DNA of 62,801 nt, the filler included, from Folioceros fuciformis (taxonomy: Eukaryota), in NCBI GenBank assembly GCA_049999805.1. It is 3 parts of 3 records of this genome, joined end to end, with 100 filler letters (N's around TTAATTAATTAA, not from the genome) between each part and the next. Parts side by side here need not be neighbours in the genome. Positions count along the whole stretch, not along the records: positions 1 to 29,604 come from JBNGIO010006289.1; 2 more parts are not named here. One strand, given 5' to 3'. This document shows positions 373-45,600 of this stretch, piece by piece. Below the pieces are notes generated by a model. It did not search any database. It was not told where the DNA came from and saw only the letters and a list, made by a program, of their open reading frames with translations. Position 1 is the stretch's first letter, and each line of letters opens with the position of its first letter. The translations under genes were made by a program, and so were the position numbers.

Positions 373-3061
373 CTAGAGTTGGTCTGGGAAGAGAAAAGGT
401 TGACCTACCGCTAGAGNNNNNNNNNNNNNNNNNNNNNNNNNNNNNNNNNNNNNNNNNNNNNNNNNNNNNNNNNNNNNNNNNNNNNNNNNNNNNNNNNNNN
501 NNNNNNNNNNNNNNNNCACTAGAGTTGGTCTGGGAAGAGAAAAGGTTGACCTACCGCTAGAGTTGCTAACAACCTTTCCCATGCTAACATTGTCATTTTC
601 TATATGGAATTGGCCAACGCTCATTGTAGAGCAATGAAAACCCTCTGTCGAAAAAATGCTACGATATATGAAAGAGGAAGACCAAGCCCATTTTTTCCTT
701 TTGTGAACCGCATTGGCGCAATACTTCAAAAACTTGGAAAATACCTTGTACATGGCCCCGTGGGTTTCAATGGCAAGGGGGATGAAGATGTATCTAGCCA
801 ATAAAGGGGTGTAGTTTGGCCGATGCACTCCCCTTTGCTACCCAACTTGTAGAGTTGGGAACAACATGCTTGTGGACTACAACCCATGTGGTGTTAGTCA
901 CAGCCACATTAGTAATAAAAACTTGCTGATCTCCCTGAATAAGGAAAAGGTCCGCTCAAAGAGAAACACCATTCAGTAGAGTTTATGGGCGCTCCCTAAA
1001 GGGTAGAAATCTAGTCTCCTTGGCCAATGAAAACATGCCATCTCACATGGCGTCGTGCGTAGCATTTTGTTGATTCCTAACCTGGCAGCGGGCAAGATGA
1101 GTACTAGAGTTGTTTAGAGACGCCCCGCAACTGCTAGAGGAGAGAGAGGAGGCCAAAGGTAAGACGAAACTGAGGAGAAACCTCATTGCAATAGAGAATG
1201 TCATTGGTGTGATTCAGAAAGCCTGGATGCTGAGACGAGCCAAGAGCTTGTGCCCTTTCTTGAGCACAAATAGAGTTGAGCCCGATCAAGCCTAGGAATA
1301 GAAGAATCCTGAAGAAGATTGAGCTGCATATGCTCGTATTCCTTCTCAAGAAGAGAAGCTTGGAGCCCTCAAATTGCCACCGCAGGAAGAGATGAAAATT
1401 GAGGCATAGCAATCCTAGCCGCAAAAGAAAGAGAGTCCTTAGCTGATCTTAGGGACACCAACAGAGGGAGGGCACCCTCCTCAACACTAAGGATGAAAGA
1501 TTTCAAAATGCAGGCATCACGAATGAGAAAACGGGGAGCCAAAATAACAGCCAAAGGGACCCAACTCTCAAGAAATGCCGTTGGTGCCAATATCTCCATT
1601 GCCGGCAAACCAATGCCTCTAAACAAGATACGAAGAGAACCCTGTCGCCTTGCAAGCTCCTCCGCATCAAACTCAAAAGTACCACAACCAAGTATATCAC
1701 TAAAAACTTGCATGATCCTATTGTCAAAGAGCTCTGATTCTGTTATCAAAGAGCTAAACCACTACAAACTTGCATGATCCTATTGTCAAAGAGCTTTGAT
1801 TCTGTTGTCAAAGAGCTAAACCACTGCAAACTTGCATGATCCTTTTGTCAAAGAGCTAGACCCCTTCAAAGTTGCATGATCCTATACTCANNNNNNNNNN
1901 NNNNNNNNNNNNNNNNNNNNNNNNNNNNNNNNNNNNNNNNNNNNNNNNNNNNNNNNNNNNNNNNNNNNNNNNNNNNNNNNNNNNNNNNNNAGAGCTAGAC
2001 CCCTTCAAAGTTGCATGATCCTATACTCAAAGAGCTAAACCCCTTCAAACTTGAAGAGAGGTCTTCAAGCTTGCTACGAATGTCAAAGAGGGGGGGGGCT
2101 GGGGTTTAGGGTTAGGAGAAGGTACCCTAGATGACATGCAAACATGAGGAAAGAATTCTAAAAGCTACATGTGGGTCCCCTTAATTAGCAAGGTCATCCG
2201 CATCGGCTAGGTCCTCCTCAAGAGCGACATCCATAAAGCCTTGGACAAAGTTTGAAGGCTCCACAAAGACCCCCGAGGTTGAAGGCCTGGTGAAATAGCA
2301 GATCCCGATATTGGATGAAGGCCACGTACAACCGTAATGGTCACCTCAGAAGTCGAAGCCACTAGCTCAGGACGGAGAGCCCAAGCATACTCCCTTGCAC
2401 GACTGAGCAAACGCTCCTCTTGAGACGCGCCGTGGCGAGGTCTGGTCAGACTCCATTAGTCTCGACAAAATCCAACTGAGACCTAGCAGCACAATTGGAC
2501 TCCTCCTGAAGGTCGTATCAATATTCGGAATGAAAACGACAAAGACAAGAAGCCACCTTCTGATGGCATGAGACAACCCCCCTCAAGCACCCAAGACACC
2601 ACTTGGGAAGAAAAAGGAACAAAGCCTAAGTGACCTTATCATGAAGATCTAGCGCTAGTGGCTCCAAAGAAGCCGATAAGCTAAGCGAACATCATAATGA
2701 AATAGTTGTGGGAGGCGCTGGACGAGATGTGGTCCTAGAAAGCATGCTTCAAATAATGCCAGGAGATAACCAAATTGAGCCGTTAACCATTGTTATGATT
2801 CCGAAGAAGTGGAATGAAGGTTATCCGTGCCTGTGATCCTAGGAGCCATCAAGAAGAAGAAGTTTGTCTAAGTTGCACCTCCCATGTAGGTCGGTGGAAA
2901 TCCTTGTGTATCAAACCCATATGATGATGAACACCCCGAGATGTGAATAGCTTTCCACACACAGGACAAGGAGTGTCCTTGGCGGAAGTTGACGATGTAG
3001 TGTCCTTGGCGGAAGTTGACGATGTAGTGTCCTTGGCGGAAGTTGACTATGTAAGACCCAT
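373..3061 (-). mobile_element. Decayed non-LTR retrotransposon with restriction-like endonuclease (CRE-clade-like), copy 1
   Basis: Minus strand reads an N-terminal C2H2 finger CPVCGKLFTSRGVHHHMGLIH (about 2905-2970), post-RT ARRQGSLRILFRGIGL (about 1600-1650), a CCHC knuckle CSCGASLNNSSTHLARC followed by THDA (about 1050-1135) and the RLE motif FIPLAIETHG (about 760-790). It has stops, frameshifts, internal tandem expansions and two gaps. The RT core is not visible. Confidence 0.75.
1705..2052. repeat. Tandem expansion inside the retroelement (units of about 60 and 40 bp), spanning a gap
   Basis: aaacttgcatgatcctattgtcaaagagct... and aaagagctagaccccttcaaagttgcatgatcctatactc recur. Confidence 0.85.
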
Positions 3062-5102
3062 ACCCCTTGGCCCGCTCCGAAACCTGCTCACTCCTACCCT
3101 ACTCCGTAACACTCATAACTACAAGATAATAATGCCTTAAAAGTATTAAAAATAGAAAAAGGAAGAAAATAAAAGAATAAAATTGTTAAAAGTCTAAACC
3201 TCGCCGCGCTCAAGTTCATGCTCATGGTAATTGGAGAAACCAATAATCATTGCCATACCCTAATCCCAATAACGGTCCTAAAGATAGTAGAGGCACCATG
3301 CTCACCGCACCTAAAGGCCTTACTCTACACCCTCCAATTTTGCTCCATATTGGCCATGGCCATATGTCCCAATACCAGCCTAAGTGCATATAGAAGTAGT
3401 GAACTTGTAATTCCTACGTACATATAAAGTAGTGAACTTGTAATTCCTACGTATAGTGAACTTATAATTCCTAGGTACATATAGAAGTAGTGAACTTGTA
3501 ATTACGTAAGTTGGTGTGCAATATATCTGTACCTACCCCATGCCCACATCTATGCCCTACCAATGCCTTGCGCTCCATGATGGCAAAGCAAAAAACACAC
3601 ACCCTTATGTTCTAACACTCCTTACACCACTCTTTGCTTATGCTCAATCATTGCACACCACCACCCAAATCCCTATCACCACCCTTTTACATCCACCTAC
3701 TTCACTGCACTTCATCACCCATGCTTCATTATCTCATTACCATCGCTCCCTATGTATTGTACTGAAAATATATTTTCTAACCACTCCCAAGCACCTTAGT
3801 CACATAATTGTGATTATAAAACTCGGATTATTTTTTACTGAAAATATATTTTATTAGCAAAAGAGTTTCAATAGTTTTCTAACTGGGAGTGCCTTACATG
3901 ATTTCCTTTTATCACTGAATGTCCTAAATAAGCCCATGGTGTTCATCCGAACATCTTCCGTCGATTTTGATTCTTACATGCTTGTTTCATCGAAGGAAAA
4001 TAAACATACTTACCAAAAACAATTTTGAAAAAAAAGTTGGATATGACTAGTGCACATTTACATCCAAGCACAACAAAACCCAACCACAATTTGTATAAGA
4101 GTGGTATGCAAACAATTCTAGGAGTATGAATTAGTATACGATAAATAATATAATAATTTTGGTTATGGTGTAATAATAACATGTCATCATTAACCCTTGG
4201 ATGGGCGGTGGAGGGTTATGTTAGCTCCAAAGTTCATAAGTATTCTCCATCCAAGATGGGCATATTTTTATCCCTTGCTCTTGAGATTGTAGAAGCATTG
4301 GCAAGGACTTTTCAATGTTTATCAAAGAGTGTGCAAAGATATATTATAGTTCTAGGAATGGGGTTCTTCCTTTCCTTTATGGTGGTTTTCTTTTGACAAT
4401 ATGTATGCATTGCTTGGTTAAGAGCATTGACCAATGCGGTTTCTATAACTGCTGTAAGTGCAAGTCAAGCAGCTTCTTCGGCATAGTGGTAGGTAGGCTA
4501 AGAAGTGTGGTAGGTAGGCTAAGAAGTGTAGGTTCAGTGGCTTCTTCAACACCTTGATAGATAGGCCTTTTATTATTCCACATCACAATATTCTAGGAGA
4601 AGTAGGAAGTTTTTGAAAGTGATATTCAAGGTCATTTATTATTCCACATCACAACATTTTAGGAGAATTAGGTAGTTTTTCAGAATGATGTTTGAAAGGT
4701 CTAAATCTACGTTTAGCTTATTACCTTGACGGGGTTATTTCTCCTATCTATCTTTGGAGTAGATAAAACTTTCTATCGTTTTTCAATAATAGAAAATAGC
4801 ATTCTAATATGTAAGATGGTATATTATACCATCTTATATATTTTATTGGATTAATAAAGATATTTAATTATTTTATTTTATTAATAATTAGAATAAAGAT
4901 TATAAAATTAAAGTATAGTAATTAGATAAAGATACAATTAAACAAAATCAATAATATTTAATAAATAAGTGAAAGAGTTTAGGGGTTAGTCAGTATTGGG
5001 CTCTTGATGGAAATGAATATCATGGTCATTCCTAAGTCGATCATTATGAACTCGATTTACATAAAGGTATAAAAGGATTAGCAAATCAACCCTACGATAT
5101 TA

Positions 5103-13238: not shown

Positions 13239-13579
13239 GGCCCCTGTCTCACGATATTCGTGACGAGGAAATTGGCCTGTCACATTAACACGCCGCCACG
13301 GCTACATCCGGAGTTAGAAATATGGATCAAATCCGCCCTGTACTCGGGAAGCAGGGGGAGTAATGTATGTTAAACTTTCTATCCGTTCTCTAGGCTTATC
13401 GAGCACGCAGCCAATGTTGGGTTTGAAATCACGCAATGGTTCATGACACGGTCCACTGACCAGAAGGCTGGTGGCACGCTGCGTCGCGAGAGAGCGCTTG
13501 TTAAGAAACAAGGTACATGGTGCTGCTTGCGCTGGCGAATCGCCGCTTGCGCTTGCGTGCCGCTGCTTCTGCTTGTTCT

Positions 13580-14408
13580 TCTGCCTCTGCCTCTGCCTCT
13601 GCCTCTGCCTCTGTCTCTGTCTCTGTTTCTGTCTCTGTCTCTGCCTCTGCCTCTGCCTCTGCCTCTGCCTCTGCCTCTGCCTCTGCCTCTGCCTCTGCCT
13701 CTGCCTCTGCCTCTGCCTCTGCCTCTGCCTCTGCCTCTGCCTCTGCCTCTGCCTCTGCCTCTGCCTCTGCCTCTGCCTCTGCCTCTGCCTCTGCCTCTGC
13801 CTCTGCCTCNNNNNNNNNNNNNNNNNNNNNNNNNNNNNNNNNNNNNNNNNNNNNNNNNNNNNNNNNNNNNNNNNNNNNNNNNNNNNNNNNNNNNNNNNNN
13901 NNNNNNNNNNNNNNNNNNNNNNNNNNNNNNNNNNNNNNNNNNNNNNNNNNNNNNNNNNNNNNNNNNNNNNNNNNNNNNNNNNNNNNNNNNNNNNNNNNNN
14001 NNNNNNNNNNNNNNNNNNNNNNNNNNNNNNNNNNNNNNNNNNNNNNNNNNNNNNNNNNNNNNNNNNNNNNNNNNNNNNNNNNNNNNNNNNNNNNNNNNNN
14101 NNNNNNNNNNNNNNNNNNNNNNNNNNNNNNNNNNNNNNNNNNNNNNNNNNNNNNNNNNNNNNNNNNNNNNNNNNNNNNNNNNNNNNNNNNNNNNNNNNNN
14201 NNNNNNNNNCTGCCTCTGCCTCTGCCTCTGCCTCTGCCTCTGCCTCTGCCTCTGCCTCTGCCTCTGCCTCTGCCTCTGCCTCTGCCTCTGCCTCTGCCTC
14301 TGCCTCTGCCTCTGCCTCTGCCTCTGCCTCTGCCTCTGCCTCTGCCTCTGCCTCTGCCTCTGCCTCTGCCTCTGCCTCTGCCTCTGCCTCTGCCTCTGCC
14401 TCTGCCTC
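13580..14408. repeat. (CCTCTG)n microsatellite containing an assembly gap
   Basis: Seen directly. The long ORFs across it are artefacts. Confidence 0.97.
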
Positions 14409-18302: not shown

Positions 18303-19244
18303 CGGATCTTCAGCTGATGTGAGAGTGCCAAACGAGTGCTGTAGGGATGCTAAGTGCTGATGTGTTGGGGCAGGCGTTCGGCAACGGAACATTTGGAGAC
18401 GTGCAATCCAGGCAGCCCAGCTGGCTACCTTGGCAAAAGTTTGCCGCTCGTGAACGGACACGGGTTTTGTCACTCTCCTGCTATCCATTCCACGTTGCAT
18501 TCCGCACGGTTCCAAGGGCCATCTGGCCCAAACTGGAGCTTCCTGGACGGCCGTACCACGAATCGCCATCAATATGTAAGCCAGACTTTTTGACTGATGC
18601 ATCACCCAGCTGTGTCTCCATGTGCGGAAGGATCGATATCGCAGCCCACGATGACCAACAACCGCGCGAATGTGTGCCCAAAACCGGCCCGGGCTATGCC
18701 AGCCCTACAGCAGCTGGGTGTCAATTGAAACGGCGCCAACAGCACAGTCCAACTTGGTGCGTGTATACTTGTCGTGGCCGAAAATCCCTTCCCAAAAGAC
18801 TTGGATCATCAGCGAGTCGCTGACACTGGCCCTGGCTTCTGGCTTGGAAAAAGCAGAGCAGGCATTCACCTCACAGGATTCGCATTGTGAGAGCGGGCAA
18901 CACGACTAAGTACGATTCATGACATCTCAGGACAAATGTTAGATCAAACATTCCTTGTTGGCACAACAAGAACACGACCTTAACTGGTTTGCAGAGACAA
19001 GCACACGACCGTAACTGGTTTGCACGACGCCCTCATCTGAGAGAGTGAGACGCCCTCATCTGAGAGAGTGACCGCTAGTGACAGTGCACATCCAGAGCGT
19101 CCCCTGACCTGACAGGTTCCTACCCTTGGGTGTCGGTCCAAAACGTAGAATGTATGTACAGTGAGCGAATGCTGCTGGTTCAACGGGACCAATCGGCCCT
19201 CTTTGGACTGTCCCGGAGAGAACAAGATGAACACCGACAGTACA

Positions 19245-20921
19245 TTACGGAAGGCTATTGAGAATGCCGACCAAAGACGCGTAAGTTCCCAGCACTGCAA
19301 CCACCGCACCTACGACAATGATACCCACAACGACAGTGGCTTCTGCTTTGTTGCCAACCTTCCAAAACATGACCAAGTAGCAAACACACGGAATGATAAC
19401 AGCTGTGGACACGCTCAGGAACGAGCCGATGAAAGCCATCAAGTACCCAAACACTGGCACTGACAGTGCGAAGGTCACAGTGCACAACACCAACAGGGTC
19501 CTCATCGCAGTTCCATACAGAAGCTGACTCCTCTCCGTTGACGAGTATGGAAGGATTTCCTCCAAGGCCCGAGCAATGGGCATCAGGGTCAATGCAAATT
19601 TGGTGAACGGGTTCACCAGTGTTATCCATATGGCAACTTTGGAGGCTACGTACCGTCCTGGCAGGTTGAGAGTCACTTGCGACTGGATATCACTCCCAAA
19701 CATGAGGAAACCAGTGCTCCCAATGGCTGCGTATAGTGCTGTGCATATGAGAAAAGAGAACACAAGGACCTGCAACAATCAAAACATGATCAATCATCTG
19801 TCCAAGAACAATCAAGTTGAACAAATTTCTTCCCTCAACTAGCTAGTTGTAGCTCATATGCGATCTCTGAGAGCAAACCAACAGGAGAAACCGTCGTGGC
19901 TGGAACATTTGATCTCAGTATAACCATTGTGAATCATGTCTGACATTCACTCTAGAATCCAGCAGTCGTCGCAGTTCTGGACCAGAATCCACATGTTTTA
20001 CACTGTCAAGAGGTGCTCACCTTGTTGAACTGCGAGCGGTCTTTCATGGAATTGTAAATGCTGGGATAAACGGCATGACCGCAGTAGCAGAACGCATATA
20101 ATCCCACGGCAACGGGCAGCCCAGACACGTTCAACAATGGGCCCTCGAGGTGAAAACCAACTCCGTCCACCGCCCCAACCCACAGCACGGCAAGAAAAAT
20201 GGCCAGGCAAGCAAAGGCTCCTCCTGCTGATACATAGGCTAAGCTGCTGAGGTCCCTCAACCACACTGTCGGCAGCATAATAAGAGCTGCGATCGTCACA
20301 AAGAACACACGAGGAGCGACTGTAACGCCTCCCCAGCTCAGATCCGTTATCGGGAATAGCTGCGACAGGTTGTCACCTTCCAGGATGAGGAACTCTACAG
20401 CCACGAGAAACAGGTCAACATACAAGAAAATGGCGACTATCCAGCGCCCCGTGGTTCCGAAGGCAGCATGTCCTATGTCCGGATAGGTACGCAGGGAAGC
20501 ATTGCTTTCCAAACACCGGCGAAGAAGCAGTCCTGTGAAGCAGCAGATCCCCGCAAACAGGAAAAGAAAGGATAATCCAAGCCATCCCCCCTGCGCCACT
20601 GCATATGGCGTGGATAGAATTCCAACTCCTGCAAGCCCAGAGAATCTTGGATTGTTACAGTAGCGAAGTAGGCGAAGGAAGATCAGACCGCGCAAGCTTC
20701 ACCTCAAGAATTTTACCTGCGAGTACGTTGATAGCATTCAGCAGAGCTTCAAAAAATGAAGTGCCTTGAGCTTGAGGCGAGGGATCCTGAACATCCACAA
20801 CAAGTTTCACGTCATCCGTCTGCTTGTCGAGGAGCGGTGCAAGCAGGCCCTTCCCGTCGCCTTTATCTCCGTTCCGACTCCACGGCAGCGAGCCGAAGCC
20901 GTTGCCGTTCACGCTTGCCAT
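19245..20921 (-). CDS. AVT1: Amino acid transporter, AVT1 family, second paralog, 3 exons: 20921-20717, 20628-20021, 19769-19245
   Basis: Same motifs and the same intron positions as the 11654-13238 gene. Confidence 0.93.
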
Positions 20922-21705
20922 GCGGCGGGCCTTGATCTGCCTCGGAACGGCCTCGCAAAAATCCGGCTACCGTGAGCGAACTATGGGATAGCGCGGACGC
21001 ATCGGCGCATCTCTAAAGGAAATTTCTGTTTTAGACCAGCTCAGCCTTTCTGATAGGCATGGACAACACAAAGGACTGACGGCCTGACGCAATGAGCCAA
21101 TATGTTCAATCGTCCCCGCTTTCGCATTCTTCTGGCCTCATCGCGGGTCTACTCTGCATGCTCAGGCCGATGGCGCCAGCCGGCCGCCCTGACCGGAAGT
21201 TGGCAGGCAGCCGGCACCCGCAGACTGGTGCTGCAGGCGCGCGGCCTCCTCTCGGCACCTTACGGAAGGGCGGGCGTGTCGGTCGGGCTGAGCGGCACCG
21301 CCAAGAGCACACATGGAACAGTGACTAGGCCTGTTCCTGGCCCTGTTCAAGGCACCCTGTCATCCCGGGTCGGTCTGCCAATCCGGGTGGCACAGTCACA
21401 CAGTCGCACGATGGCTATCCGTCCTTATTGATCTCTGATAGAACTCTGGTTCTCCTATCTCAAACTTGTGACGACGCACTTGGTATTATTTCAGCCTGAC
21501 GCCAAACCTAGACTAGCATTCCCGAGCAATAGCCACCCCGCTGACTAGGCTCCAGGTCCCTCCCACTCCGGAAAGAGCTACAGTATATTAGATAATATTC
21601 CAACATCTGCCTGTCATGATACAGCGCCGAGGGCATAAAACACCACTTTTCGGTTGCCCTCGATCTTCACACGTCGTCAGGCAGCCAGCAAGGTGCTCAA
21701 CATTT

Positions 21706-23217
<1,512 letters not shown>

Positions 23218-23534
23218 CTAAACCTTTAGAATCTCATGCACAAGTGAGGGCACCTGAATGCAAGCCACAGCAGCATTTAGAGGAACGACTGACCCCATGC
23301 TGGGCGGCTCACGCTCTCGGTTGCCTACACACAAGCCCCCTGATCATCAAAACTGAACCCAGCAGCAGCCAACCACAACCACAAGAGACAGCAGACTTCG
23401 TCACAGATATTCTAGAGGACGGCCTAGACGAGAGAGGCCAGACCAGACCTTTGGACAACCAGTACCCTGCATCTGAACAGTTGGAAACAAGGACTTTGAT
23501 GGGCCTCCATTTTCTTACGACCCTGGGACATGCA

Positions 23535-23915
23535 TCACCAAATAGGTCGACCACCAGGCTGATTGGAGAAAGGACAAGTTCGATTGACCCTACTGCCGGC
23601 GCCACGTTGCAGGACTTAGCAACGTGATGACGCCTCTGCGCAACCAATGCGAAAAACACAATGAGAAAACCCACGGTCAAGACCCACGGTGCAAGACCTC
23701 TGGGACGAGGACGAGTGGTTGAGGTGAAACAATGGGAACCACACGGGTGCGGTTCGAGAATCCAATGTAAGAGATCGAGGCATACCAATCGACAGGTCGA
23801 CACCCGCTCAGCAGGAGAAAGAAGGCATTGGTGCAACTTTGGCGTTCAAATTTTCTCTGCTCCTGTTCAGACCAAACATGCACCATTCGACAAGATGGCA
23901 GCGCCTCTATAGAAG
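23535..23915 (-). pseudogene. Two degenerate copies of the H/ACA unit
   Basis: Residual gacaggtcgacacc...gacaagatggcagcgcctct...gagc similarity. The ACA box is lost (ATG) in the 23780-23920 copy. Confidence 0.55.
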
Positions 23916-24000
23916 AGCACAAAAAGACGTATGACGCTCAAGGCCACCTCACAGAAATCAGCACCGTGATCCAGGAAAAGTAACTCCTACTGTGAGATTG

Positions 24001-25448
24001 AGCTGTAGCAGGAGACAGGTCGACAACGGCTCAACAAAAATTAGAGGGCATGGGTTAAGACGAGGTACTATTTCCTCTCTGCTCATGCTGACACGAACCT
24101 TGCAACCAGTGACAAGATGACAACGCCTCTGTTCGAGAGCGTGAAATCCCGTATCTAGGATCAGATCAGATGACTTAAGACCATTATCAAAACACCTTGA
24201 GGTCTTCTATGAAACTGAGGTGTACCAGTAGACAGGTCAACACCGACGCAACAAAAAATAGCGGGCATTGGTTTAAAAGTGGCACTATTTCCTATCTGCT
24301 CATGCTGACACCAACCTTGCAACCATTGACAAGATGGTAACACCTCTATACAAGAGCATTAAGTCGCGCACCAAGAATCATATCAGATGACTTAAGACCA
24401 CTTTCAGTACACCTTGAGGCCCTCTTTGAAACAGAGATGTACCAGTAGACAGGTCAACACCGGCTCAACGAAAAAATAGCGGGCATTGGTTAAATAGTGG
24501 CACTATTTCCTCTCTGCTCATGCTGACACCAACCTTGCAATCAGTGACAAGACGGCAACGCCTCTGTACATGAGCATCAAATCGCAAACCATGGAGGATC
24601 ATATCAGATGACTGAAGACCACTATCAACGAACCTTGAGGCCCTCTTCGAAACGGAGATGTACCAGTAGACAGGTCAACACCGACTCCACAAACATTAGC
24701 TGGCATTGGTTCGAAACTGGCACTATTTCCTCTATGCTCATGCTGACACCAACCTTGCAACCAGTGACAGGATGGCAACGTCTCTGTACAAGAGCCCTAG
24801 ACCCTAAACCAAGGATCACATCAGATGACCGAAAGCACTATCAATAGACCTTGAGGCCCTCTTTGAAACTGAGATGTGCCAGTAGACAGGTCAACACCGG
24901 CTCCACAAGCATCAGCGGGCATAGGTTTGAAAGTGGCACTATTTCCTCTCTGCTCATGCTGACACCAACCTTGCAACAGTGACAAGATGGCAACGCCTCT
25001 GTACACGAGCATGAAACACGCACCACACCTCAGGTCAGATGACTCAAGGAGCTTCAGGCCCCTATTTACGCAGAGATGTTCCAGTAGACAGGTCAACACC
25101 GGCTCAACAAAGAACGATAGCGGGCATTGGTTTAAAAGTGGTACTTTTTCCTCTCTGCTCATGCTGACACCAACCTTGCAACAAGTGACAAGATGGTAAC
25201 GCCTCTGTACAAGAGCATTAAATGACTTACCAAACCTCCGATAGCATGACACAAACAGCACAAGAACACGATCAACAAACCTTACAACTGAGCTGTACCA
25301 CTAAACAGGTCAACACCGCCTCAACAAAAAATAAAATAAAAAAAATAGCGGGCTCTGGTGTCATTGCTGACCCTATTTTTCCTCTGCTCCTGACACCAAC
25401 CTTCCAGCAACCAATGATAGGATGACAACGCCTCTGCAGATAAGGGCC
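24001..25448 (-). ncRNA. Tandem cluster of 7 recognisable box H/ACA snoRNA genes (about 140 nt each, period about 220 bp): 24001-24142, 24218-24359, 24435-24577, 24656-24797, 24872-25012, 25074-25218, 25291-25448
   Basis: Each unit on the minus strand reads hairpin 1 (GCUC...GAGC), H box AGAGGA or AUAGGA (ANANNA), hairpin 2 (GUGCCA/UGGUAC lower stem, CAAUGCC/GGUGUUG upper stem), then ACA plus 3 nt. The pocket AAAC / ACCUGUCU is complementary to 25S rRNA AGACAGGU-UA-GUUU and starts 14 nt from the ACA. The two outer units are more diverged. Confidence 0.85.
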
Positions 25449-26437
25449 TGACTAACCCCACAGAATCTCACATCACACAACTCCTCGAAATCAAGACCAG
25501 AATGAGGAAACCCTACAGCCTATTGTCATATTGAGAAGTCTGTGTGACTATGAGGTCAACAACCGCTCAAAAGTAGAAAAGCGCCGCCTGAGAAACCTTG
25601 ACAAGGTGGCAAAGCACCGTAAAGCATGACCGACAACCACGATCCTACCCGCTGCGTGACGTTTTGAGACAAATCGGACGTACATGCTAGACAGAGGACG
25701 ATTGCACATATAGGAGCAAGACAAAACCTGAGGAACAAGATCTTGGGCGCTGGTCTTCCACAGATGTGTCGATGCTACTATGCAGCAACCGTGACTGACG
25801 GAGCAGGCATCCAAGACCGGAACTCTGTGATGATCAGAATCGCGTCATCGCTCACGACAGTGGGAGTTACAAAAACGGGCTCGACCGACAACGGGCCGTG
25901 GTCACATTGGAAAAGGAAAGGAGGCTGTTAGCGCAGTTTAACGTCGTCACGAACCGAGTCCACAGCACCAGCACTTACAGCCCCAAAAAATGAGCACTGC
26001 GAGTACACTTGACCTCCAACGACTCGAAGTTCAGTGAGGGAAGCTGGAGGTGATTTGTACCGCTGGGAAGCATCGCGGAGAAATGCTGGGCCCCAGCTTG
26101 GGAATTCGATGAGAACGGCATAGAGACGCAGGCCAGTTGAGCGACATGTCGGGCATATATGAACCCTTGAGGTATACATGTCAGGATTTAGGGCATCAAC
26201 CTGCTAATGTAGGGTTAGGGGTTCACCTGTGTTCGGATCTCATCAGTGCTTCTTCGTCAGTTCATGGTTGCGATCAGGTCTCAAAGCAGATGTTGTGGCA
26301 AGGAGGGTACTTGATGGCAGGGGAGACTTCGAGGGGTTTGAGAACGTACTCGGTCCTGGAATTGGCTGGGTGGGTCGAGGGGAAAGAGACTTCATGAGCA
26401 TGCGAGGAGACAGTTGAGCTTAGATTGTAAGATGATA

Positions 26438-29400
26438 ATGGCGGGTACGAAGAACGGAATAGCTGAAAGGAAGCTGCGGCCTGTCTGGGATGCAATAGAT
26501 TCCAGGCAGTACAAGTCTGCTTTGAAGTTCGTCACTGCTCTGTTGGCCAAGCACCCTGGCTCTGCTTACCTCCTGGCTTTGAAGGCATTGGTCTTGGAGA
26601 GGATTGGTAAAGTTGATGAAGCTCTGGTTGTTTGTCAGCAGTCCAAAGACAGTGCCCCTGTCGATGAACTCACGCTGAGCACGCTGCAGATGGTTTACCA
26701 AAGGCTGGATAGACTGGACCAGATAACACTCTGTTATGAGTATGCTGTCGCGAAGAGTCCTCGGAATTTTGACTTTCTGACTTGCTTGTTCAACTGCTAT
26801 GTCCGCGAGAACATCTATATTAAACAGCAGCACGTGGCAATCAAGCTGTACAAGTTAACGGGGGAGGAGAAGTACCTTCTGTGGGCTGTTTGCAGCATCC
26901 AGTTGCAGGTTCACTGTGGGAATGGTAATAGTGAGCAGCTGCTCCCCCTGGCAGAGGCTTTGATTAAGAAGCGCCTAGAGTCACAAGAACTGAGGAATGT
27001 GGAGTCCTTACTCGTGTATCTCACAGTTCTTAGGGAGCAAAGGAAGTTTGATGCTGCACTAGAGGCACTTTCTGGCAAACTAGGGAACCTGTTCAGTATC
27101 CCTGCCGAGAAGCTTCGATTGCAGGGAAACTTGCTGATGGAGTCCGCTCAGTATGACCGAGCGGAGGACGTATTCAAGAAAGTATTAAAGCTGAGCTCAG
27201 ATGATTGGGATGATTTTCTTTGCTTACTCGCTGCCACGTTGGAGGAACCCAGGGCCACTTTTCAATCGAGGGCTTCAGTGTGCAATTGTGAAACTGAGAC
27301 TGCTTTGAAGCCTGAAGAGGTTGAGCGCAGACTGAACGCAGTAGATTCGTTTGTTGAGGAGCTTTTAGCCATGAAAGTGGACTATCTAAGACGTGGACCG
27401 TACCTAGCAAAATTGGAGATTGCTAAAAGGCGGTTGCTGTTTAAAAGGTTTTTTAGTGATGAAGAGGGGATTGTATCTGGAGAACGGGATCTTATTTCTA
27501 ATTTTGTACAGTACTTCGAGAGGTTTGGGCATATGGTGAGCTTTGCCTCTGATGTCCGAGGGTTCATCCCATATGTAGGTGAAGGTGAGAAAGAAAGGCT
27601 TGCCAGCAATTTGCAAAGGATGAGTGCCAATATGGTAGGTACTGATGCTGTGAAATTGCTAAGGTGGAGGGTTGGTGCTTATCAGGTCGAAGAGCTCCTT
27701 GCTGTGAAGGCAAAACGCCCTAATGTGGACCTTGTCGGCCACGCTGTGCGTATCACCCAGCTGTATGTGGATAACTTGCACCTTTCGGCGGACTTAGATC
27801 CTAAAGAAAGCATGTATGGAGAGGAGCTGCTAGTACTGGCTGTGAACTTGTTAGTTGAGTTGTTCCGCCGAACGCAAGAGGTTGCATACATCATTGAAGC
27901 CATCCTTGTGCTGGAATATGGTTTGTCAACGAGGAAGTATAGCTCTCAGTATAAGATTATGATTACGAATCTGTATTTTCTTCTCTCTGCTGGGTCGTCG
28001 GCAGTGCAATGGTACAAGACGCTGGACATCAAGTATATTTTGCTAGACACACTTTCACACCACATTCTTTACTATCTTTTGGGTTCTCCATTGTGGTCAG
28101 ACTTGGAGGTGTTGCTGAAGGATTCCATTAAATTCCATAAAGACCATGAAGCAGATGCCGGAGATCTTACTATTCAGGCCTACAGGCATGGCACTTATTC
28201 AAAAGTGCTAGAATTTGTACAGTTTAAGGAAAAATTGCAACAGTCCCACCACCATGTCGTGGTGAGAATTGAGGACTCAATTCTCACCTTGAAGAAGGAA
28301 AGCACAGTAGCTGGAGTGGTTGACAGGCTGGCGCAGTTGGACTCAGGATGCAAGACCTACAAACTGTCGTCTGCGACACAGCTTTCAGCTTTGACATTTC
28401 TTGAAGACCTTCAAATGCGGCCATGGTGGAGTCCTGCACCAGATGAATGCTACCTAGCAGATCCCTCTCTGCTGGAACAACACATTAGTTGGCATTATGA
28501 AGACAGTGAGGCTAAGAGGATGAGAAGAGAGGAGCGCTGGAAATTATATCTAAGGAAAAGGGGCATTCTGCCACGTTTACTTCACTTGTCTTTGAATGCG
28601 GTTTCTCCAAAGCAAGAACTTGAGTCACCTGAAAGCGACCGAGTTCCTGAGGACTTAGGGCTTTTGCTTGAAGAATACTCTGGTATCCTTGGAGTAGGAT
28701 GGGAGAACATTGATGATTGGCTAACCGACAGGGTGAAGGCTAAAATTCTCGTCGAAGGGTCTGGAATAGGGGCAGTTGACGTCCTCAGTTTTGGAGTATT
28801 TTCAATTGCCCAGAAACTTAGCAACCAAGTCGTCCAGGCTAACAGACCTGACGATGGCCTGGAAAAGAGTTTTGACACCTTGATGAGGGCAATCGGGTGT
28901 ACTTTGCAGGTGGTGTTAGAGTCCATGACTGCAAGGCCCAACTCAGTTTCCCAAGGAGATCCTGCTGAGGTTCTAGCTCCTGGTCCAGCTGTTGCCGTGC
29001 TCATGAGCTTGACATCAGAGGTGTTATCTTGGCTTGGTCTGTGCTTGCAATCATGGAGAAAGCACATGCAACCAACTGTGAGGAGAAAGAAAAAAGGTGG
29101 GATTGCCAGCATCCATTCAAGTGAGGATATCGCAGACAGGAGACTTAGCTCCATTGCGCAGGTGCTCCAGAAGGCACAGACGTCACTTGCTGACGAGCTG
29201 AAGACACTTAGCCAGTGGTTGACCAAGTTTTTAGAGAGGAATGAGGAGGAGGAAGTGGAACACCTGCTATCACTGCTCAGACAGAACGACACAAAGGGGG
29301 CGGAGAATCAACCATTGCCAGGTTGTGTGTTCCGAGTCCTGCAGTCCAGTATTGTGAATGGGGTGACATCGCCGAAGTGGCGTCCGCAATCGGTTGTGAG

Positions 29401-29491
29401 AAAGATCGTCACTGCCCAGCGAGAGGTCATTGACGGGATAAGGGACCTGGCTGAAAAACAACTTAGTACGTTGGACTTTGTGAAGGCTTAA
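26438..29491 (+). CDS. NAA25: NatB N-terminal acetyltransferase auxiliary subunit NAA25/MDM20 (TCU2-like), single exon
   Basis: ERKLRPVWDAIDSRQYKSALK, TPR-like repeats, RGPYLAKLEI, WYKTLDIKYILLDTLSHH and YSKVLEFVQFKEKLQQS. Confidence 0.93.
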   Translation: MAGTKNGIAERKLRPVWDAIDSRQYKSALKFVTALLAKHPGSAYLLALKALVLERIGKVDEALVVCQQSKDSAPVDELTLSTLQMVYQRLDRLDQITLCYEYAVAKSPRNFDFLTCLFNCYVRENIYIKQQHVAIKLYKLTGEEKYLLWAVCSIQLQVHCGNGNSEQLLPLAEALIKKRLESQELRNVESLLVYLTVLREQRKFDAALEALSGKLGNLFSIPAEKLRLQGNLLMESAQYDRAEDVFKKVLKLSSDDWDDFLCLLAATLEEPRATFQSRASVCNCETETALKPEEVERRLNAVDSFVEELLAMKVDYLRRGPYLAKLEIAKRRLLFKRFFSDEEGIVSGERDLISNFVQYFERFGHMVSFASDVRGFIPYVGEGEKERLASNLQRMSANMVGTDAVKLLRWRVGAYQVEELLAVKAKRPNVDLVGHAVRITQLYVDNLHLSADLDPKESMYGEELLVLAVNLLVELFRRTQEVAYIIEAILVLEYGLSTRKYSSQYKIMITNLYFLLSAGSSAVQWYKTLDIKYILLDTLSHHILYYLLGSPLWSDLEVLLKDSIKFHKDHEADAGDLTIQAYRHGTYSKVLEFVQFKEKLQQSHHHVVVRIEDSILTLKKESTVAGVVDRLAQLDSGCKTYKLSSATQLSALTFLEDLQMRPWWSPAPDECYLADPSLLEQHISWHYEDSEAKRMRREERWKLYLRKRGILPRLLHLSLNAVSPKQELESPESDRVPEDLGLLLEEYSGILGVGWENIDDWLTDRVKAKILVEGSGIGAVDVLSFGVFSIAQKLSNQVVQANRPDDGLEKSFDTLMRAIGCTLQVVLESMTARPNSVSQGDPAEVLAPGPAVAVLMSLTSEVLSWLGLCLQSWRKHMQPTVRRKKKGGIASIHSSEDIADRRLSSIAQVLQKAQTSLADELKTLSQWLTKFLERNEEEEVEHLLSLLRQNDTKGAENQPLPGCVFRVLQSSIVNGVTSPKWRPQSVVRKIVTAQREVIDGIRDLAEKQLSTLDFVKA

Positions 29492-29703
29492 CTGTGAATT
29501 GTTTGGGTAGCTTCGTGCATGATGGATGACCTTTCGCGCATACTGCGGTCGTTTCACCAAAAAGATGTGACGCGTTCGAATTGTAGGTATATAATGAACA
29601 GATGNNNNNNNNNNNNNNNNNNNNNNNNNNNNNNNNNNNNNNNNNNNNTTAATTAATTAANNNNNNNNNNNNNNNNNNNNNNNNNNNNNNNNNNNNNNNN
29701 NNN

Positions 29704-35366: not shown

Positions 35367-35439
35367 GGTCGCATGGCCCAATGGATAAGGCGCTGGTCTA
35401 CGAAACCAGAGATTCTGGGTTCGATCCCCAGTGTGATCG
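35367..35439 (+). tRNA. tRNA-Arg(ACG)
   Basis: Acceptor stem GGTCGCA/TGTGATC, D arm, anticodon arm CTGGT-CT ACG AA-ACCAG, T arm GGTTCGATCC, and TATTTT downstream. Confidence 0.96.
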
Positions 35440-42640: not shown

Positions 42641-45600
42641 ATGGCTTAATCCTCCCCACCTAACAGGAACGAAGAGAACACAGCGGGCAGCAACCCACCG
42701 ATCAGGAATGTAGAAAACACAGACGGAAGTAACTCACCGATCAGGAACGAAGAAAACACAGACGGTAGCAACTCACCGATCAGGAACGTAGAAAACATAG
42801 ACGGCAGCAACTCACCGATCAGGAACGTAGAAAACACAGACGGCAGCAACTCGCCGATCAGGAACGTAGAAAACACAGACGGCAGCAACTCCCCGAGCAG
42901 GAACCAAAGCAACTCACCGACCAGGAGCCCAGAGAACACCGACGGCAGCAACTCACCGACCATTAGCCGAGGGAACATAGACGGCAGTATCTCTCCGATC
43001 AGGAAACCAGAGAACACAGACGGCAGCAACTCACCGACCAGGAGCCAAGGGAACACAGACGGCAGAAACTCTCCGATCAGGAACCGAGAGGGCAGAGATG
43101 GCAGCAACTCACCCATCAGGAGCAGAGCGAGCACAGACGGCAGCAACTCGCCGAGCAGGGCCGGATGGAACAAAGAGCGGAACAACGCTCAAGAGGAAGG
43201 CCGGCGGCCTAGCGCATGGTTACTCGGGGATCTCCCGACTACGACATACGGATTCCAGGGTGGCGGCAGGCGAACTTCTTCTTCGGTCCACGACAGGCAC
43301 ACTCCGTCACCACTTCGTAGACCGTCTCGAGGCCAAGCACACGGAAGGGTTTCGCAATGGAGCCCGCCCGAGCTCATGATCAGGAGTGCCAGGACCACCG
43401 CATCACCGGCTTCGTCGCCGACCACGAGTTCCAGGCCAGGCGGGCAAGGTTTGGGAATCAGATCTGAGCTAGCCGCCTACGCGTCTCCAAGTTCACTGCA
43501 GGTAGGGACGAGGCTGAGAGGCGTGCCAGAGCAGGCGGAGCAGCCATATTCACCGCCGGGATTCGAGAATCTGGTCACGACAACATTACAGCAAGCGCGC
43601 GGGACACCGAGTTGGTCAGGGCGGGTTCCGCCATACGACCATGAACAAGCTCCCTTGGATGTGGAAGCCCTTCTGACAGACACGCAGGTGAGAGAGTTCA
43701 GGAAAGCTGTAAACTTCGCGCAAAGGCCGTTGGAGGTCCAGCAGATCGTGAAGACGGAGATTGTGAGCGGACGGGCGGGGCTGGAAGCCACCGAGGCCCT
43801 GGCGAGATCGCTGCAGGAGGCTGTGAGCAAGCGGGATCTCTACAGCAAGGAGGAAATCTTGCGAGCCAAGGTGCAAGCAGTGAATCAGTTCGCAAACCCG
43901 TACATCCCGAATTGCGATCCGGACGAGTCGGACGTGCGAGTGCCGCGCCTTCCCTCGGCTTCTGGTGTCCATCGCCCGCGCTTCAACAGGGCGTGGGTGG
44001 AGGCCCTGACGAATCCGGCGCGGGCGGCCGATGAGGCTGCGAGATGGATGTTCGCCGAGAGAGTGGTGGTAACGCAGGGGAACCTCCAGCTGGAAGGATT
44101 CAATACCCGGCTGGAGCATGCAGCGAGGGAATCGAGGCGGGAGCGAGTCGGGCTGAAGGGGCGTGAAAGAACGTCTCGTTTGCAGCGGCTTCAGGATGCC
44201 GACCGCGATTTCGTGCCCAAGCTCATGATTCCAACGACAGGCCGGGTCCTGACCGCACAGACGAGGGCCGCAGATGAGGGCACGACGAGCACGAGCGTCA
44301 TGCAAACGATTGCGACAGTGGCCCTCGTTTACGCCGAGTGCGTGGGGCGCATAAAGGTGGCCAACACGGGCTCCTTGCTCAAGGACCCGGCGTCAATCGG
44401 CGTGCTTCCTCTGGAAGCCTTGGCTCAGATCGACGCGTTCCTGCGGCTCAGAGGCTTGCCGACCATGGACGTGCCGGGGTTGTACGACGCTTTTTTGAGC
44501 CCGGGGGTTTTCCTGGGCGGGGGCAGGCCGGTAGTGGGGAGCGAGTGGGCCAAGGCTACGAACGCGACGCTGGTGCTGCAGCGCAGGAAGGAGTCCAAGG
44601 GGACGAGCTCCACGGCGTTGGAGTTGGAGCTGGAGCTGAGGCGGATCAAGGAAAGGGTGCAAAAGTGGATTCCGCTCTTTCGGGCGTACCTCGGGGAATA
44701 TGCCGACCTGCTGGGGGCGATGATGATGGAGACTCCTCCACACATTGACCATGCGCCCGTTTGCGCGACGGTGGACAGGGATTTCTGGCCGTCGGGTCGG
44801 AAGATGCCAGACGCGGCATTGATGCAGGAGCTGTGGGGGGACTGCGAAGAGAACTACGGCTTCCACATGAACATGGCGCTGCTCACGAGCTTTGTGACGC
44901 ACGGCTCCAAGATGGAGGTGGCCATGGACGAACTGGATGTGCGCTGGACAGACCTCCTGGACGAAAAAGCAAAGGGGGAGGAGGCGGAGTACCGCAGGAT
45001 GATAAAGGAGATCGAACCTCTGACACGTACGATGTCTCTCTTCCTCTGGCCTCTACTATGCATTGCACTTCAACAGAGCGTGCGCTCCGGAAACCAACCG
45101 CGGTTTGTGGGCGGGGCTTGCAGACCAGGTGGAGTCGCTGCTGTGCAGCGTGGCGGCCAGGGAGCAAGCCGATTCGTGTGCGCTGGAAGAGGACTGGAAG
45201 ATTGTGCAACTGATCCAGCAGAAGGAAGCAGCGGAGAACAAAATGGCTGTGGTAGACCCTCTCATCTACAGCATCTGGTCGCGCCATCTTCTGGAAATGT
45301 TCAGGACGTTGATTGCCAAAGGGCTGTCGGAGATGGCCATAATAGGAAGTTGGGACGAGGGCATGCCAGAACTAACACACAATTTCTACAACATAGTGGA
45401 GAGGTGGCATGACTGGTATTTGTGGATTAGGAGAACTCCCAAAGCCATGGATTATTTGGCAACGCTGGGCATCAATGCCGAGGTTTTGGCCATGACGGTG
45501 ACCACCAACCGCGATGAACACAGGTCTCGTGCCACGCTGCAGTTCTTGGCCAATAAAGCCGCTCATCGGGTGGTTCATCCTTGGGTCGCCGAGGCTATCT

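Follow-up and report, generated by a model that had tools for sequence, protein, structure and literature searches.

A tandem array of a probable double-guide H/ACA snoRNA gene in the leader of a RuvB-like gene of Folioceros fuciformis

RESULTS AND DISCUSSION

Organization of the repeat array

The locus described here lies in a 62,801-nucleotide stretch of Folioceros fuciformis DNA (GenBank assembly GCA_049999805.1; three joined parts, analyzed as a whole and hereafter called the window), within the part taken from record JBNGIO010006289.1 (positions 1 to 29,604). It comprises a tandem repeat on the minus strand, a RuvB-like gene downstream of the repeat on the same strand, and a divergent NAA25-like gene upstream. 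It is likely that the repeat is a tandemly amplified H/ACA small nucleolar RNA (snoRNA) gene with two guide pockets, carried in the RNA polymerase II (Pol II) leader of the RuvB-like gene and processed in the manner of plant polycistronic snoRNA clusters, with about five copies at work. The units probably guide two sites in large-subunit (LSU) ribosomal RNA (rRNA).

Tandem Repeats Finder reported a tandem repeat at 23999-25223 (period 217, 5.7 copies, 82% matches, score 1498), and the direct-repeat families in the region are spaced by 202 to 223 bp; the repeat of ~220 bp described in the original prediction for this DNA is therefore real. By anchoring on GACCTGT and by searching with a covariance model, R1 (six window units and two metagenome copies under a hand-written H/ACA structure), we resolved the array into nine units on the minus strand, from 25448 to 23528, with a period of ~217 bp. 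It thus extends ~470 bp below 24001, the lower coordinate of the original prediction. A search of the whole 62.8-kb window with R1 gave exactly nine matches, every one on the minus strand and within 23528-25448. The units (u1 to u9, numbered from the 25448 end) are arranged head to tail, with an RNA of ~143 to 146 nt each and spacers of ~75 nt.

Units u2 to u6 (25219-24218) form the intact set, each unit retaining its two hairpins with their guide pockets, as well as the H and ACA boxes. Unit u2 (25074..25219; R1 score, 160.2 bits) carries AGAGGA and ACA boxes. At the base of the hairpin 2 lower stem, u3 (24872..25013; 155.2 bits) has a G-C pair in place of G-U, as had been claimed for the copy at 24872. 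The hairpin 1 5′ guide of u4 (24656..24798; 154.0 bits) has one mismatch (AGAGACGUU), and its hairpin 2 5′ guide reads GAAC; the latter is UAAC (3 bp) in u5 (24435..24578; 160.6 bits). Unit u6 (24218..24360; 158.7 bits), with one G-U wobble in its hairpin 1 5′ guide, contains the example given in the original prediction (24359-24218), which reads as quoted there.

The outer units are progressively decayed, so that the middle of the array is best preserved and both ends are eroded. Unit u7 (24001..24143; 130.4 bits) retains its boxes and 3′ guides but has lost 9 of the 34 model pairs, with breaks in the lower stem of hairpin 2. AUG replaces ACA in u8 (23778..23921; 73.0 bits), and u9 (23528..23645; 18.3 bits; E = 0.0078) is a relic. 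At the other end, u1 (25291..25448; 49.8 bits) has kept its H and ACA boxes and reads ACCUGUUU as its hairpin 2 3′ guide; it has lost the 5′ guide of hairpin 2 and the normal lower stem of hairpin 1. The earlier count of seven or more copies accordingly holds for recognizable units, of which there are nine, and not for fully intact ones, of which there are five. Conservation within the intact set follows the RNA: mean identity among u2 to u6 is 88% in the RNA part and 67% in the spacers, and the invariant columns are the guide strands, boxes, and 3′ stems, while the loops vary.

H/ACA architecture of the units

Units u3, u4, and u5 each fold alone, at minimum free energy (MFE), into a hairpin-hinge-hairpin-tail structure with large internal loops, and the RNAalifold consensus of the units gives the two-hairpin layout likewise. 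Together with the cross-species alignment described below, these folds bear out the hairpin-H box-hairpin-ACA order that had been proposed, as far as the central units are concerned. The hinge carries an H box (ANANNA) in u1 to u7; its usual form is AGAGGA, with AUAGGA in u6, a change confined to an N position as previously described. The ACA box is likewise present in u1 to u7; u8 has AUG, and u9 has none. In all 8 aligned units, 14 nt separate the first pocket nucleotide from the H box (hairpin 1) or the ACA box (hairpin 2), the spacing to ACA being that of the original prediction. A two-hairpin fold with a pocket in each hairpin, H and ACA boxes, and a bipartite guide at 14 nt are the features by which the units are placed in the H/ACA class.

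The spacers after u3 to u6 (24144-24871) keep two blocks, CNGTTTCAAAGAGGGCCTCAAGGT right after ACA and AGTCATCTGAT ~45 nt further on, which may serve in processing, in protein binding, or as cryptic splice signals. Structure prediction for the spacers gave weak hairpins only, with double changes in 0 of 15 pairs. A box C/D snoRNA in the spacer, suggested by CUGA and UGAU motifs, was rejected upon inspection by eye, there being no proper C box or terminal stem.

Rfam families and relatives in metagenomes

Rfam had been named earlier as a means of checking the units. At the gathering threshold it gave no match in the array. A permissive scan of 23400-25700 returned one recurring family, the plant H/ACA snoRNA snoR137 (RF01433), in five units: u5 at 36.1 bits (E = 5.5e-4), u2 at 26.8 bits, and three others at 27.0, 24.3, and 17.1 bits. 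A recurring match to a plant H/ACA family was thus obtained, though at scores that all fall under the gathering score of 44. It is the 3′ hairpin, hairpin 2, that accounts for the match (lower stem, UUaAAC, ACCUGUCuc, and an AnA box). Hairpin 1 matched human SNORA17 (RF00560) at 19.9, 19.2, and 17.6 bits (E ~1; hairpin 1 only), below the gathering score of 29 for that family. Judged by sequence, the units appear to be a relative of snoR137 through hairpin 2; because they score below threshold and have a different hairpin 1, we do not file them as members.

Metagenomes were scanned with a hairpin 2 pattern (GCCA, six bases, AAC, 28 to 50 bases, ACCTGTCT, two bases, TGG, one base, ACA). A total of 21 loci were recovered (given L numbers here), and all 21 are full-length two-hairpin matches to R1. 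Thirteen are of an angiosperm type, with a hairpin 1 unrelated to that of the window. The other loci, of a window type, share the hairpin 1 pocket of the window; they are L004, L007, L008/L009/L014 (from one brine organism), L017, L012, and L023. Six loci were run through Rfam: the angiosperm-type loci L005, L010, and L016 pass snoR137 at 56 to 57 bits, and L004, L007, and L014 do not. Matching is therefore reciprocal, since R1 finds L005, L010, and L016, which themselves pass the snoR137 gathering score.

In L005, L010, and L016, snoR137 is a single copy within mixed clusters of C/D and H/ACA snoRNAs, together with the box C/D genes snoZ159, snoZ101, and snoZ102. In L005 (100-1430), the order is snoZ159, snoZ159, snoR137, snoZ101, snoZ101, snoZ102; the L016 cluster lies at 1050-1830. 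The closest relative of the window units, L004, has two diverged copies ~220 bp apart (116.5 and 114.8 bits with R1), which differ by compensatory changes in a lower stem (CC/GG versus UU/AA). Tandem duplication of this snoRNA gene is therefore not unique to the window. The earlier remark that a row of one snoRNA family is unusual agrees with the single copies in mixed clusters, and is weakened by the two tandem copies of L004. Downstream of the H box and ahead of hairpin 2, both L004 copies (1719-2101, minus strand) also have a small additional hairpin that is absent from the window units, with stems of UUCC/GGAA in one copy and CCUCCC/GGGAGG in the other. In L014 (1-14650; same contig as L008), the alga-like homologue belongs to a 3,397-bp unit that recurs in five exactly spaced, 100% identical copies. 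The repeat may have arisen very recently or may reflect an assembly loop, and we do not use it as evidence for a second array.

Conservation of the two-hairpin fold, which had been proposed as a check, was found across species. Of the cells in a 23-sequence alignment, 89.6% are paired, and double changes are seen at 28 of the 34 pairs, compared with 17.6 ± 2.0 pairs in shuffles (0 of 500 reach 28) and 8 to 13 pairs with slid partners. The stems covary strongly, and the pocket strands are fixed. Because the scan pattern itself prescribes the pocket of hairpin 2, four pairs of its lower stem, and ACA, conservation at those positions is circular. The upper stem of hairpin 2 (helices 4 and 5) is free in the pattern and has double changes in 10 of 10 pairs; all of hairpin 1 is likewise free.

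Predicted target of hairpin 2

On the basis of complementarity and spacing, hairpin 2 is predicted to target the second U of GAGACAGGUUAGUUUU in 25S rRNA, the site of pseudouridine (Psi) 2975 in yeast, and we consider this assignment quite probable. The 3′ hairpin pocket would place this U in the dyskerin/Cbf5 active site. The pocket (AAAC / ACCUGUCU, 14 nt before ACA) faces the target motif GAGACAGGUUAGUUUUACC: the 3′ strand ACCUGUCU pairs with AGACAGGU, U-A is left unpaired, and AAAC pairs with GUUU, which is the pairing set out in the original prediction. As in an snR42-type guide, the pocket can pair on either side of the target U in GAGACAGGUUAGUUUU, with the right spacing. The 5′ guide varies (GAAC in u4; UAAC in u5 and u7), and pairing amounts to 8 + 4 bp in u2, u3, and u6, includes one wobble in u4, and is 8 + 3 bp in u5 and u7. 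Yeast 25S Psi2975 is listed with snR42 as its guide (PMC5699541).

The motif was located in two contigs of a viral collection, one of which (L001) is the 3′ part of eukaryotic LSU rRNA, with the motif at ~2975-2993 of the Rfam model and the target U at model position 2984. The LSU rRNA part of L001 runs only up to the sarcin-ricin loop. Among the relatives, the hairpin 2 pocket of the angiosperm-type snoR137 genes in L005 and L016 also fits the Psi2975 site.

Predicted target of hairpin 1

The original prediction had left hairpin 1 without a target. The pocket of hairpin 1 has AGAGGCGUU on its 5′ side and GUCA on its 3′ side, and pairing with the proposed target is 9 + 4 bp in the intact units. 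The candidate target is the U of UGGC-U-G-AACGCCUCU in helix 97, which by coordinate arithmetic would be Arabidopsis Psi3100 and human 28S U4659, an assignment that we hold to be somewhat probable. The 5′ hairpin pocket would position this U as the 3′ pocket does its own target. The core AGGCGUU occurs upstream of hairpin 2 in all seven non-angiosperm-type lineages and in none of the 13 angiosperm-type snoRNAs.

Scanning the viral collection for UGRC-U-G-AACGCCUCU gave 101 matches, nearly all of which are due to chance and lie in phage-like DNA. Rfam confirmed only two as LSU rRNA, L042 (model 3007-3393) and L103 (model 3083-3161); L075 looks similar and obtained no score. Both L042 and L103 put the hairpin 1 target U at model position 3121, 137 positions past the hairpin 2 target U. 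Published pairs supplied the offsets between species (Arabidopsis 2884 = human 4441, Arabidopsis 2181 = yeast 2191, and Arabidopsis Gm2912 in the A loop). By this arithmetic, the yeast 2975 site is human 4522, and 4522 + 137 = 4659. There is one U only within two positions of the predicted site, so that a small slip in coordinates would not change the assignment.

In the passages on H97 of the review by Streit and Schleiff (2021; PMC8351944), Arabidopsis 25S U3100 is given as a mapped pseudouridine conserved with human U4659, for which, according to the review, no snoRNA is known. That statement dates from 2021, and supplements to Arabidopsis modification papers may assign guides to 25S Psi2965 or Psi3100. 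For the human site, ACA17 (SNORA17) is listed for U4659, U4598, and U4937, citing the snoRNA-LBME database (PMC6010090, table 2), in agreement with the weak SNORA17 similarity of hairpin 1. A literature search for SNORA17 together with snR42 found no paper treating both.

Transcription and the leader of the RuvB-like gene

The coding sequence of the RuvB-like gene opens with an exon at 22444..23205 on the minus strand, with its ATG at 23205 (Pfam TIP49, E = 7.2e-100; P-loop), and continues at 21709-22440, also on the minus strand (TIP49 and the TIP49_C lid domain; Pfam E = 2.5e-56). By its motifs, the gene appears to be of the RuvBL2 type. A search by tblastn of both coding exons against the metagenome contigs L003 to L023, most of which are short, found no RuvB-like gene beside the relatives at E < 1e-3.

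The stretch is present in one public run, X1, whose kind is unrecorded; two runs of the same study are without it. Contigs from X1 have four joints with CT..AC ends on the plus strand, as expected of GT..AG introns of minus-strand genes, and X1 therefore contains spliced minus-strand RNA. Depth was found in 30 of 30 bins over 19000-29500, and all seven records are at least 99% alike. Contig 3 (1,580 nt) runs from 24377 to 23786, skips 150 nt, continues from 23635 to 23447, skips 195 nt, and ends with 23251-22453. Two splicing events thus connect an RNA stretch with u6, u7, and most of u8 to the first RuvB-like coding exon. Another contig covers 24511-24902.

Both leader introns, identified by contig joint and junction sequence, have canonical splice sites. 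Intron A (23636..23785, minus strand) is 150 nt long with GT..AG ends. Intron B (23254..23448, minus strand) is 195 nt long, with GT..AG ends when the cut is shifted by 2. The leader exon between them (23449..23635, minus strand; contig 3 positions 800-988) holds most of the relic u9. Intron A is derived from repeat units at both of its ends: its 5′ splice site is the decayed ACA region of u8 (UUG/GUAUGC; exon end 23786, within 23778-23790), and its 3′ splice site is the decayed hairpin 1 of u9 (GCGCAG/AGGCG; exon start 23635, within 23630-23645).

Under the interpretation favored here, Pol II would transcribe the array on the minus strand within a long leader spliced onto the first RuvB-like coding exon. 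Endo- and exonucleases would then excise the snoRNAs from this precursor independently of splicing, as in plant polycistronic clusters, and the five central copies would be functional while those at both ends decay. The mature snoRNAs would, like others of the H/ACA class, end 3 nt after ACA, assemble with Cbf5/dyskerin, Nop10, Nhp2, and Gar1 into small nucleolar ribonucleoproteins (snoRNPs), and direct both pseudouridylations. The leader in the contig is 827 nt long with 15 upstream ATGs; for this reason, the form seen is more likely a snoRNA precursor than a good messenger RNA (mRNA). Runs of T6 occur within the hairpin 2 loop, which argues against transcription by Pol III. In the interval separating the array from the divergent NatB-subunit gene, a motif scan of 25200-26450 had a sole hit, a "telo box"-like 8-mer, AAACCCTA (25508..25515, plus strand), at 60 nt upstream of u1. 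Telo boxes mark promoters of plant translation-apparatus genes, and it is possible that this one is a promoter element; one 8-mer is weak evidence.

Functional units might instead be released from introns if the central array lay in one large or several leader introns, with the contig representing a precursor or a retained-intron form. We consider this unlikely, though worth keeping in mind. Contig 3 ends at 24377, inside the repeats, and so is silent on donors further upstream; the 15 upstream ATGs make a poor mRNA of the contig form; and every spacer of u3 to u6 has CAAG/GT and a preceding YAG. Plants and algae are known to have snoRNA clusters within introns (PMC7671301). Against this, no contig joint occurs inside 23786-25448 (contigs drop rare forms, and 11-nt exons could not assemble), and the bases past the spacer GT are unconserved (GTCTAT, GTTCGT, GTGTAC, GTGTTT). 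An intronic location would alter the processing route, not the identity of the RNA. A related idea, with each snoRNA in its own small intron between 11-nt exons (AG/AGGGCCTCAAG/GT), was found to be unsupported, given the varying bases after GT and the absence of such a joint in the contigs.

RuvB-like ATPases, as part of R2TP, help to assemble H/ACA and C/D snoRNPs. The arrangement could thus act as a feedback device, in which snoRNP assembly and excision from the leader would sever the cap from the RuvB-like coding part, each transcript yielding either snoRNAs or mRNA. The balance of snoRNA and mRNA would then report the snoRNP-assembly capacity of the cell; in a variant, the last assembled unit would shield the downstream RNA as a snoRNA-capped transcript. 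We regard such a device as improbable.

Counterevidence and alternative explanations

Several observations weigh against a working double-guide array. Folding energies are unremarkable relative to shuffled sequence (z from +1.28 to −1.98, only u5 being near −2). Mismatches interrupt the lower stems of the central units, with U-U in hairpin 1 (4 of 6 units) and C-C in hairpin 2. The claim that variation within the array respects the structure is weakly borne out by the number of pairs with double changes (5, compared with 2.4 ± 1.0 in shuffles, 13 of 500 of which reach 5), and not by the covariation score, which is not significant (matched by 103 of 500 shuffles). Support from relatives is tempered by the circularity of the scan pattern and by the fitting of the 23-sequence alignment to R1, and membership of RF01433 by score is denied by a best score of 36.1 bits. 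X1 is classed as RNA on account of its spliced joints, and in its contigs, which show neither ends nor levels, the units stand unprocessed within longer RNA.

The target assignments face objections of their own. Both targets were matched on LSU rRNA in viral-collection contigs rather than on the rRNA of F. fuciformis itself, and the hairpin 1 site was named by coordinate arithmetic rather than by alignment to the Arabidopsis or human rRNAs. The 3′ guide of hairpin 1 comprises 4 bp only, one of them a wobble. In the entries concerned, Chen and Wu (2009; PMC2685112) give Arabidopsis snoR137 an 18S target only (P1, Psi1208), with no P2, and assign 25S Psi2964, the neighboring or the same U, to snoR97-2.

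Some of these points would also be expected of a dead satellite derived from a snoRNA gene, that is, of pseudogene units transcribed by virtue of their position in the RuvB-like leader, with a working copy elsewhere in the genome. Four of the nine units are visibly decayed, two decayed units serve as splice sites, the lower-stem mismatches affect most central units, covariation inside the array is not significant, and the contigs show units only within longer RNA. However, the two boxes, the two guide pairs, and the 14-nt spacing are all preserved in five units lying side by side, and it is the RNA part that is conserved over the spacers, with variation left to the loops. We therefore judge a dead satellite quite improbable.

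The units could also be guide-like RNAs with other or additional targets (a small nuclear RNA, an mRNA, or pre-rRNA as a folding chaperone), their rRNA complementarities being unused. The variable hairpin 2 5′ guide (AAAC, GAAC, UAAC) and the short pairing of the hairpin 1 3′ strand would fit such a role. Yet the cores of both pockets persist across relatives ranging from algae-like to plant-like, whose stems have changed; pseudouridine is reported from other eukaryotes at each of the two complementary rRNA sites; and both pockets have the 14-nt spacing. This explanation is highly improbable, and a double guide for two LSU rRNA sites remains our preferred reading.

Comparison with known systems

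Arabidopsis snoR137 (RF01433) resembles the units in its length (146 nt), in its two-hairpin layout, and in its 3′ hairpin, where the pocket (UUaAAC ... ACCUGUCuc) is the same, the lower stem (gCCaG / CuGGu) is similar, and an AnA box follows; R1 and the Rfam model match each other's members. The two differ in hairpin 1, which is unrelated: AGGCGUU is absent from 13 of 13 angiosperm-type sequences, and the units do not have the 5′ guide of snoR137 for 18S Psi1208. They differ also in arrangement, since snoR137 members above threshold are single copies in mixed clusters, whereas the window has a one-family tandem array.

SNORA17/ACA17, listed for 28S U4659, bears a weak likeness to hairpin 1 of the units (AGGC.UUGC, and GUCAG before an AGAGGA H box), with no match between the 3′ hairpins. 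SNORA17 is a single-copy intronic gene. Yeast snR42 has the same predicted target uridine as hairpin 2 and is likened to the units by target site only; for the hairpin 1 target region, yeast is given as unmodified in the H97 passages of the review (PMC8351944).

Production of many snoRNAs from one Pol II precursor, with splicing-independent processing, is described for plants and algae (PMC7671301), paralogues are common inside plant snoRNA clusters (PMC5122169), and tandem arrays of one snoRNA occur in mammals (PMC2875012). The mammalian SNORD115/116 arrays consist of orphan box C/D snoRNAs, one per intron. Unlike these arrays and the plant and algal clusters, the window repeats one H/ACA family nine times with ~75-nt spacers, in the leader of a protein-coding gene, and its units are exonic in the RNA contig.

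Tandem and polycistronic snoRNA genes as such are thus already known, and the guide mechanism would be that of any H/ACA RNA. Relative to the literature compared, the new elements are the nine-unit array of one family, its place in the leader of a snoRNP-assembly gene, the splice sites formed from decayed units, and the predicted helix-97 guide. The snoRNA units are in this way physically linked to a gene of the snoRNP-assembly machinery, and the locus displays in one place tandem amplification, erosion of the ends, and the conversion of a decayed ACA box into a 5′ splice site and of a decayed hairpin into a 3′ splice site. If our interpretation is correct, a satellite-like 217-bp repeat is a block of working RNA genes, which matters for the annotation of bryophyte genomes, where snoRNAs are poorly catalogued. 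The same predicted double guide, for the helix-97 and Psi2975 sites, is found in plant-like and alga-like relatives, and angiosperm snoR137 would have kept the second pocket only. Hairpin 1, if its target is right, would be the first candidate guide type for Arabidopsis Psi3100, and its AGGCGUU...GUCA pocket can be searched for in angiosperms.

Neighboring genes and other features of the window

Upstream of the array and divergent from it lies a NAA25-like gene for a NatB auxiliary subunit (26432-29488, plus strand), a single uninterrupted open reading frame of 1,019 codons. The best named relatives of its protein are in liverworts (44 to 45% identity) and Sphagnum (50% over 70% of its length), as expected for a land plant of bryophyte grade, and one other protein is 56% identical. 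RNA contig 5 reads from 25533 through this gene with no joint; the gene must then have a leader of ~900 nt, or else its transcripts overlap those of the minus strand.

On the other side of the array, a 3,737-nt contig (19000-22348) shows an amino-acid-transporter-like gene running into the 3′ part of the RuvB-like gene, both on the minus strand. Two introns have been removed from the transporter-like gene (19768-20018 and 20628-20715), and a separate 266-nt contig keeps the first of them. Either the transporter-like and RuvB-like transcripts overlap, or the assembler merged them.

Elsewhere in the window are long hexamer microsatellites at 13558-13809 (TGCCTC x42) and 14210-14408 (CTGCCT x33) and a minisatellite at 42657-43163 (a block of ~500 bp with a 39-bp unit). 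A transfer RNA gene at 35367-35439 (plus strand; 58 bits) is the sole Rfam match at the gathering threshold in the window.

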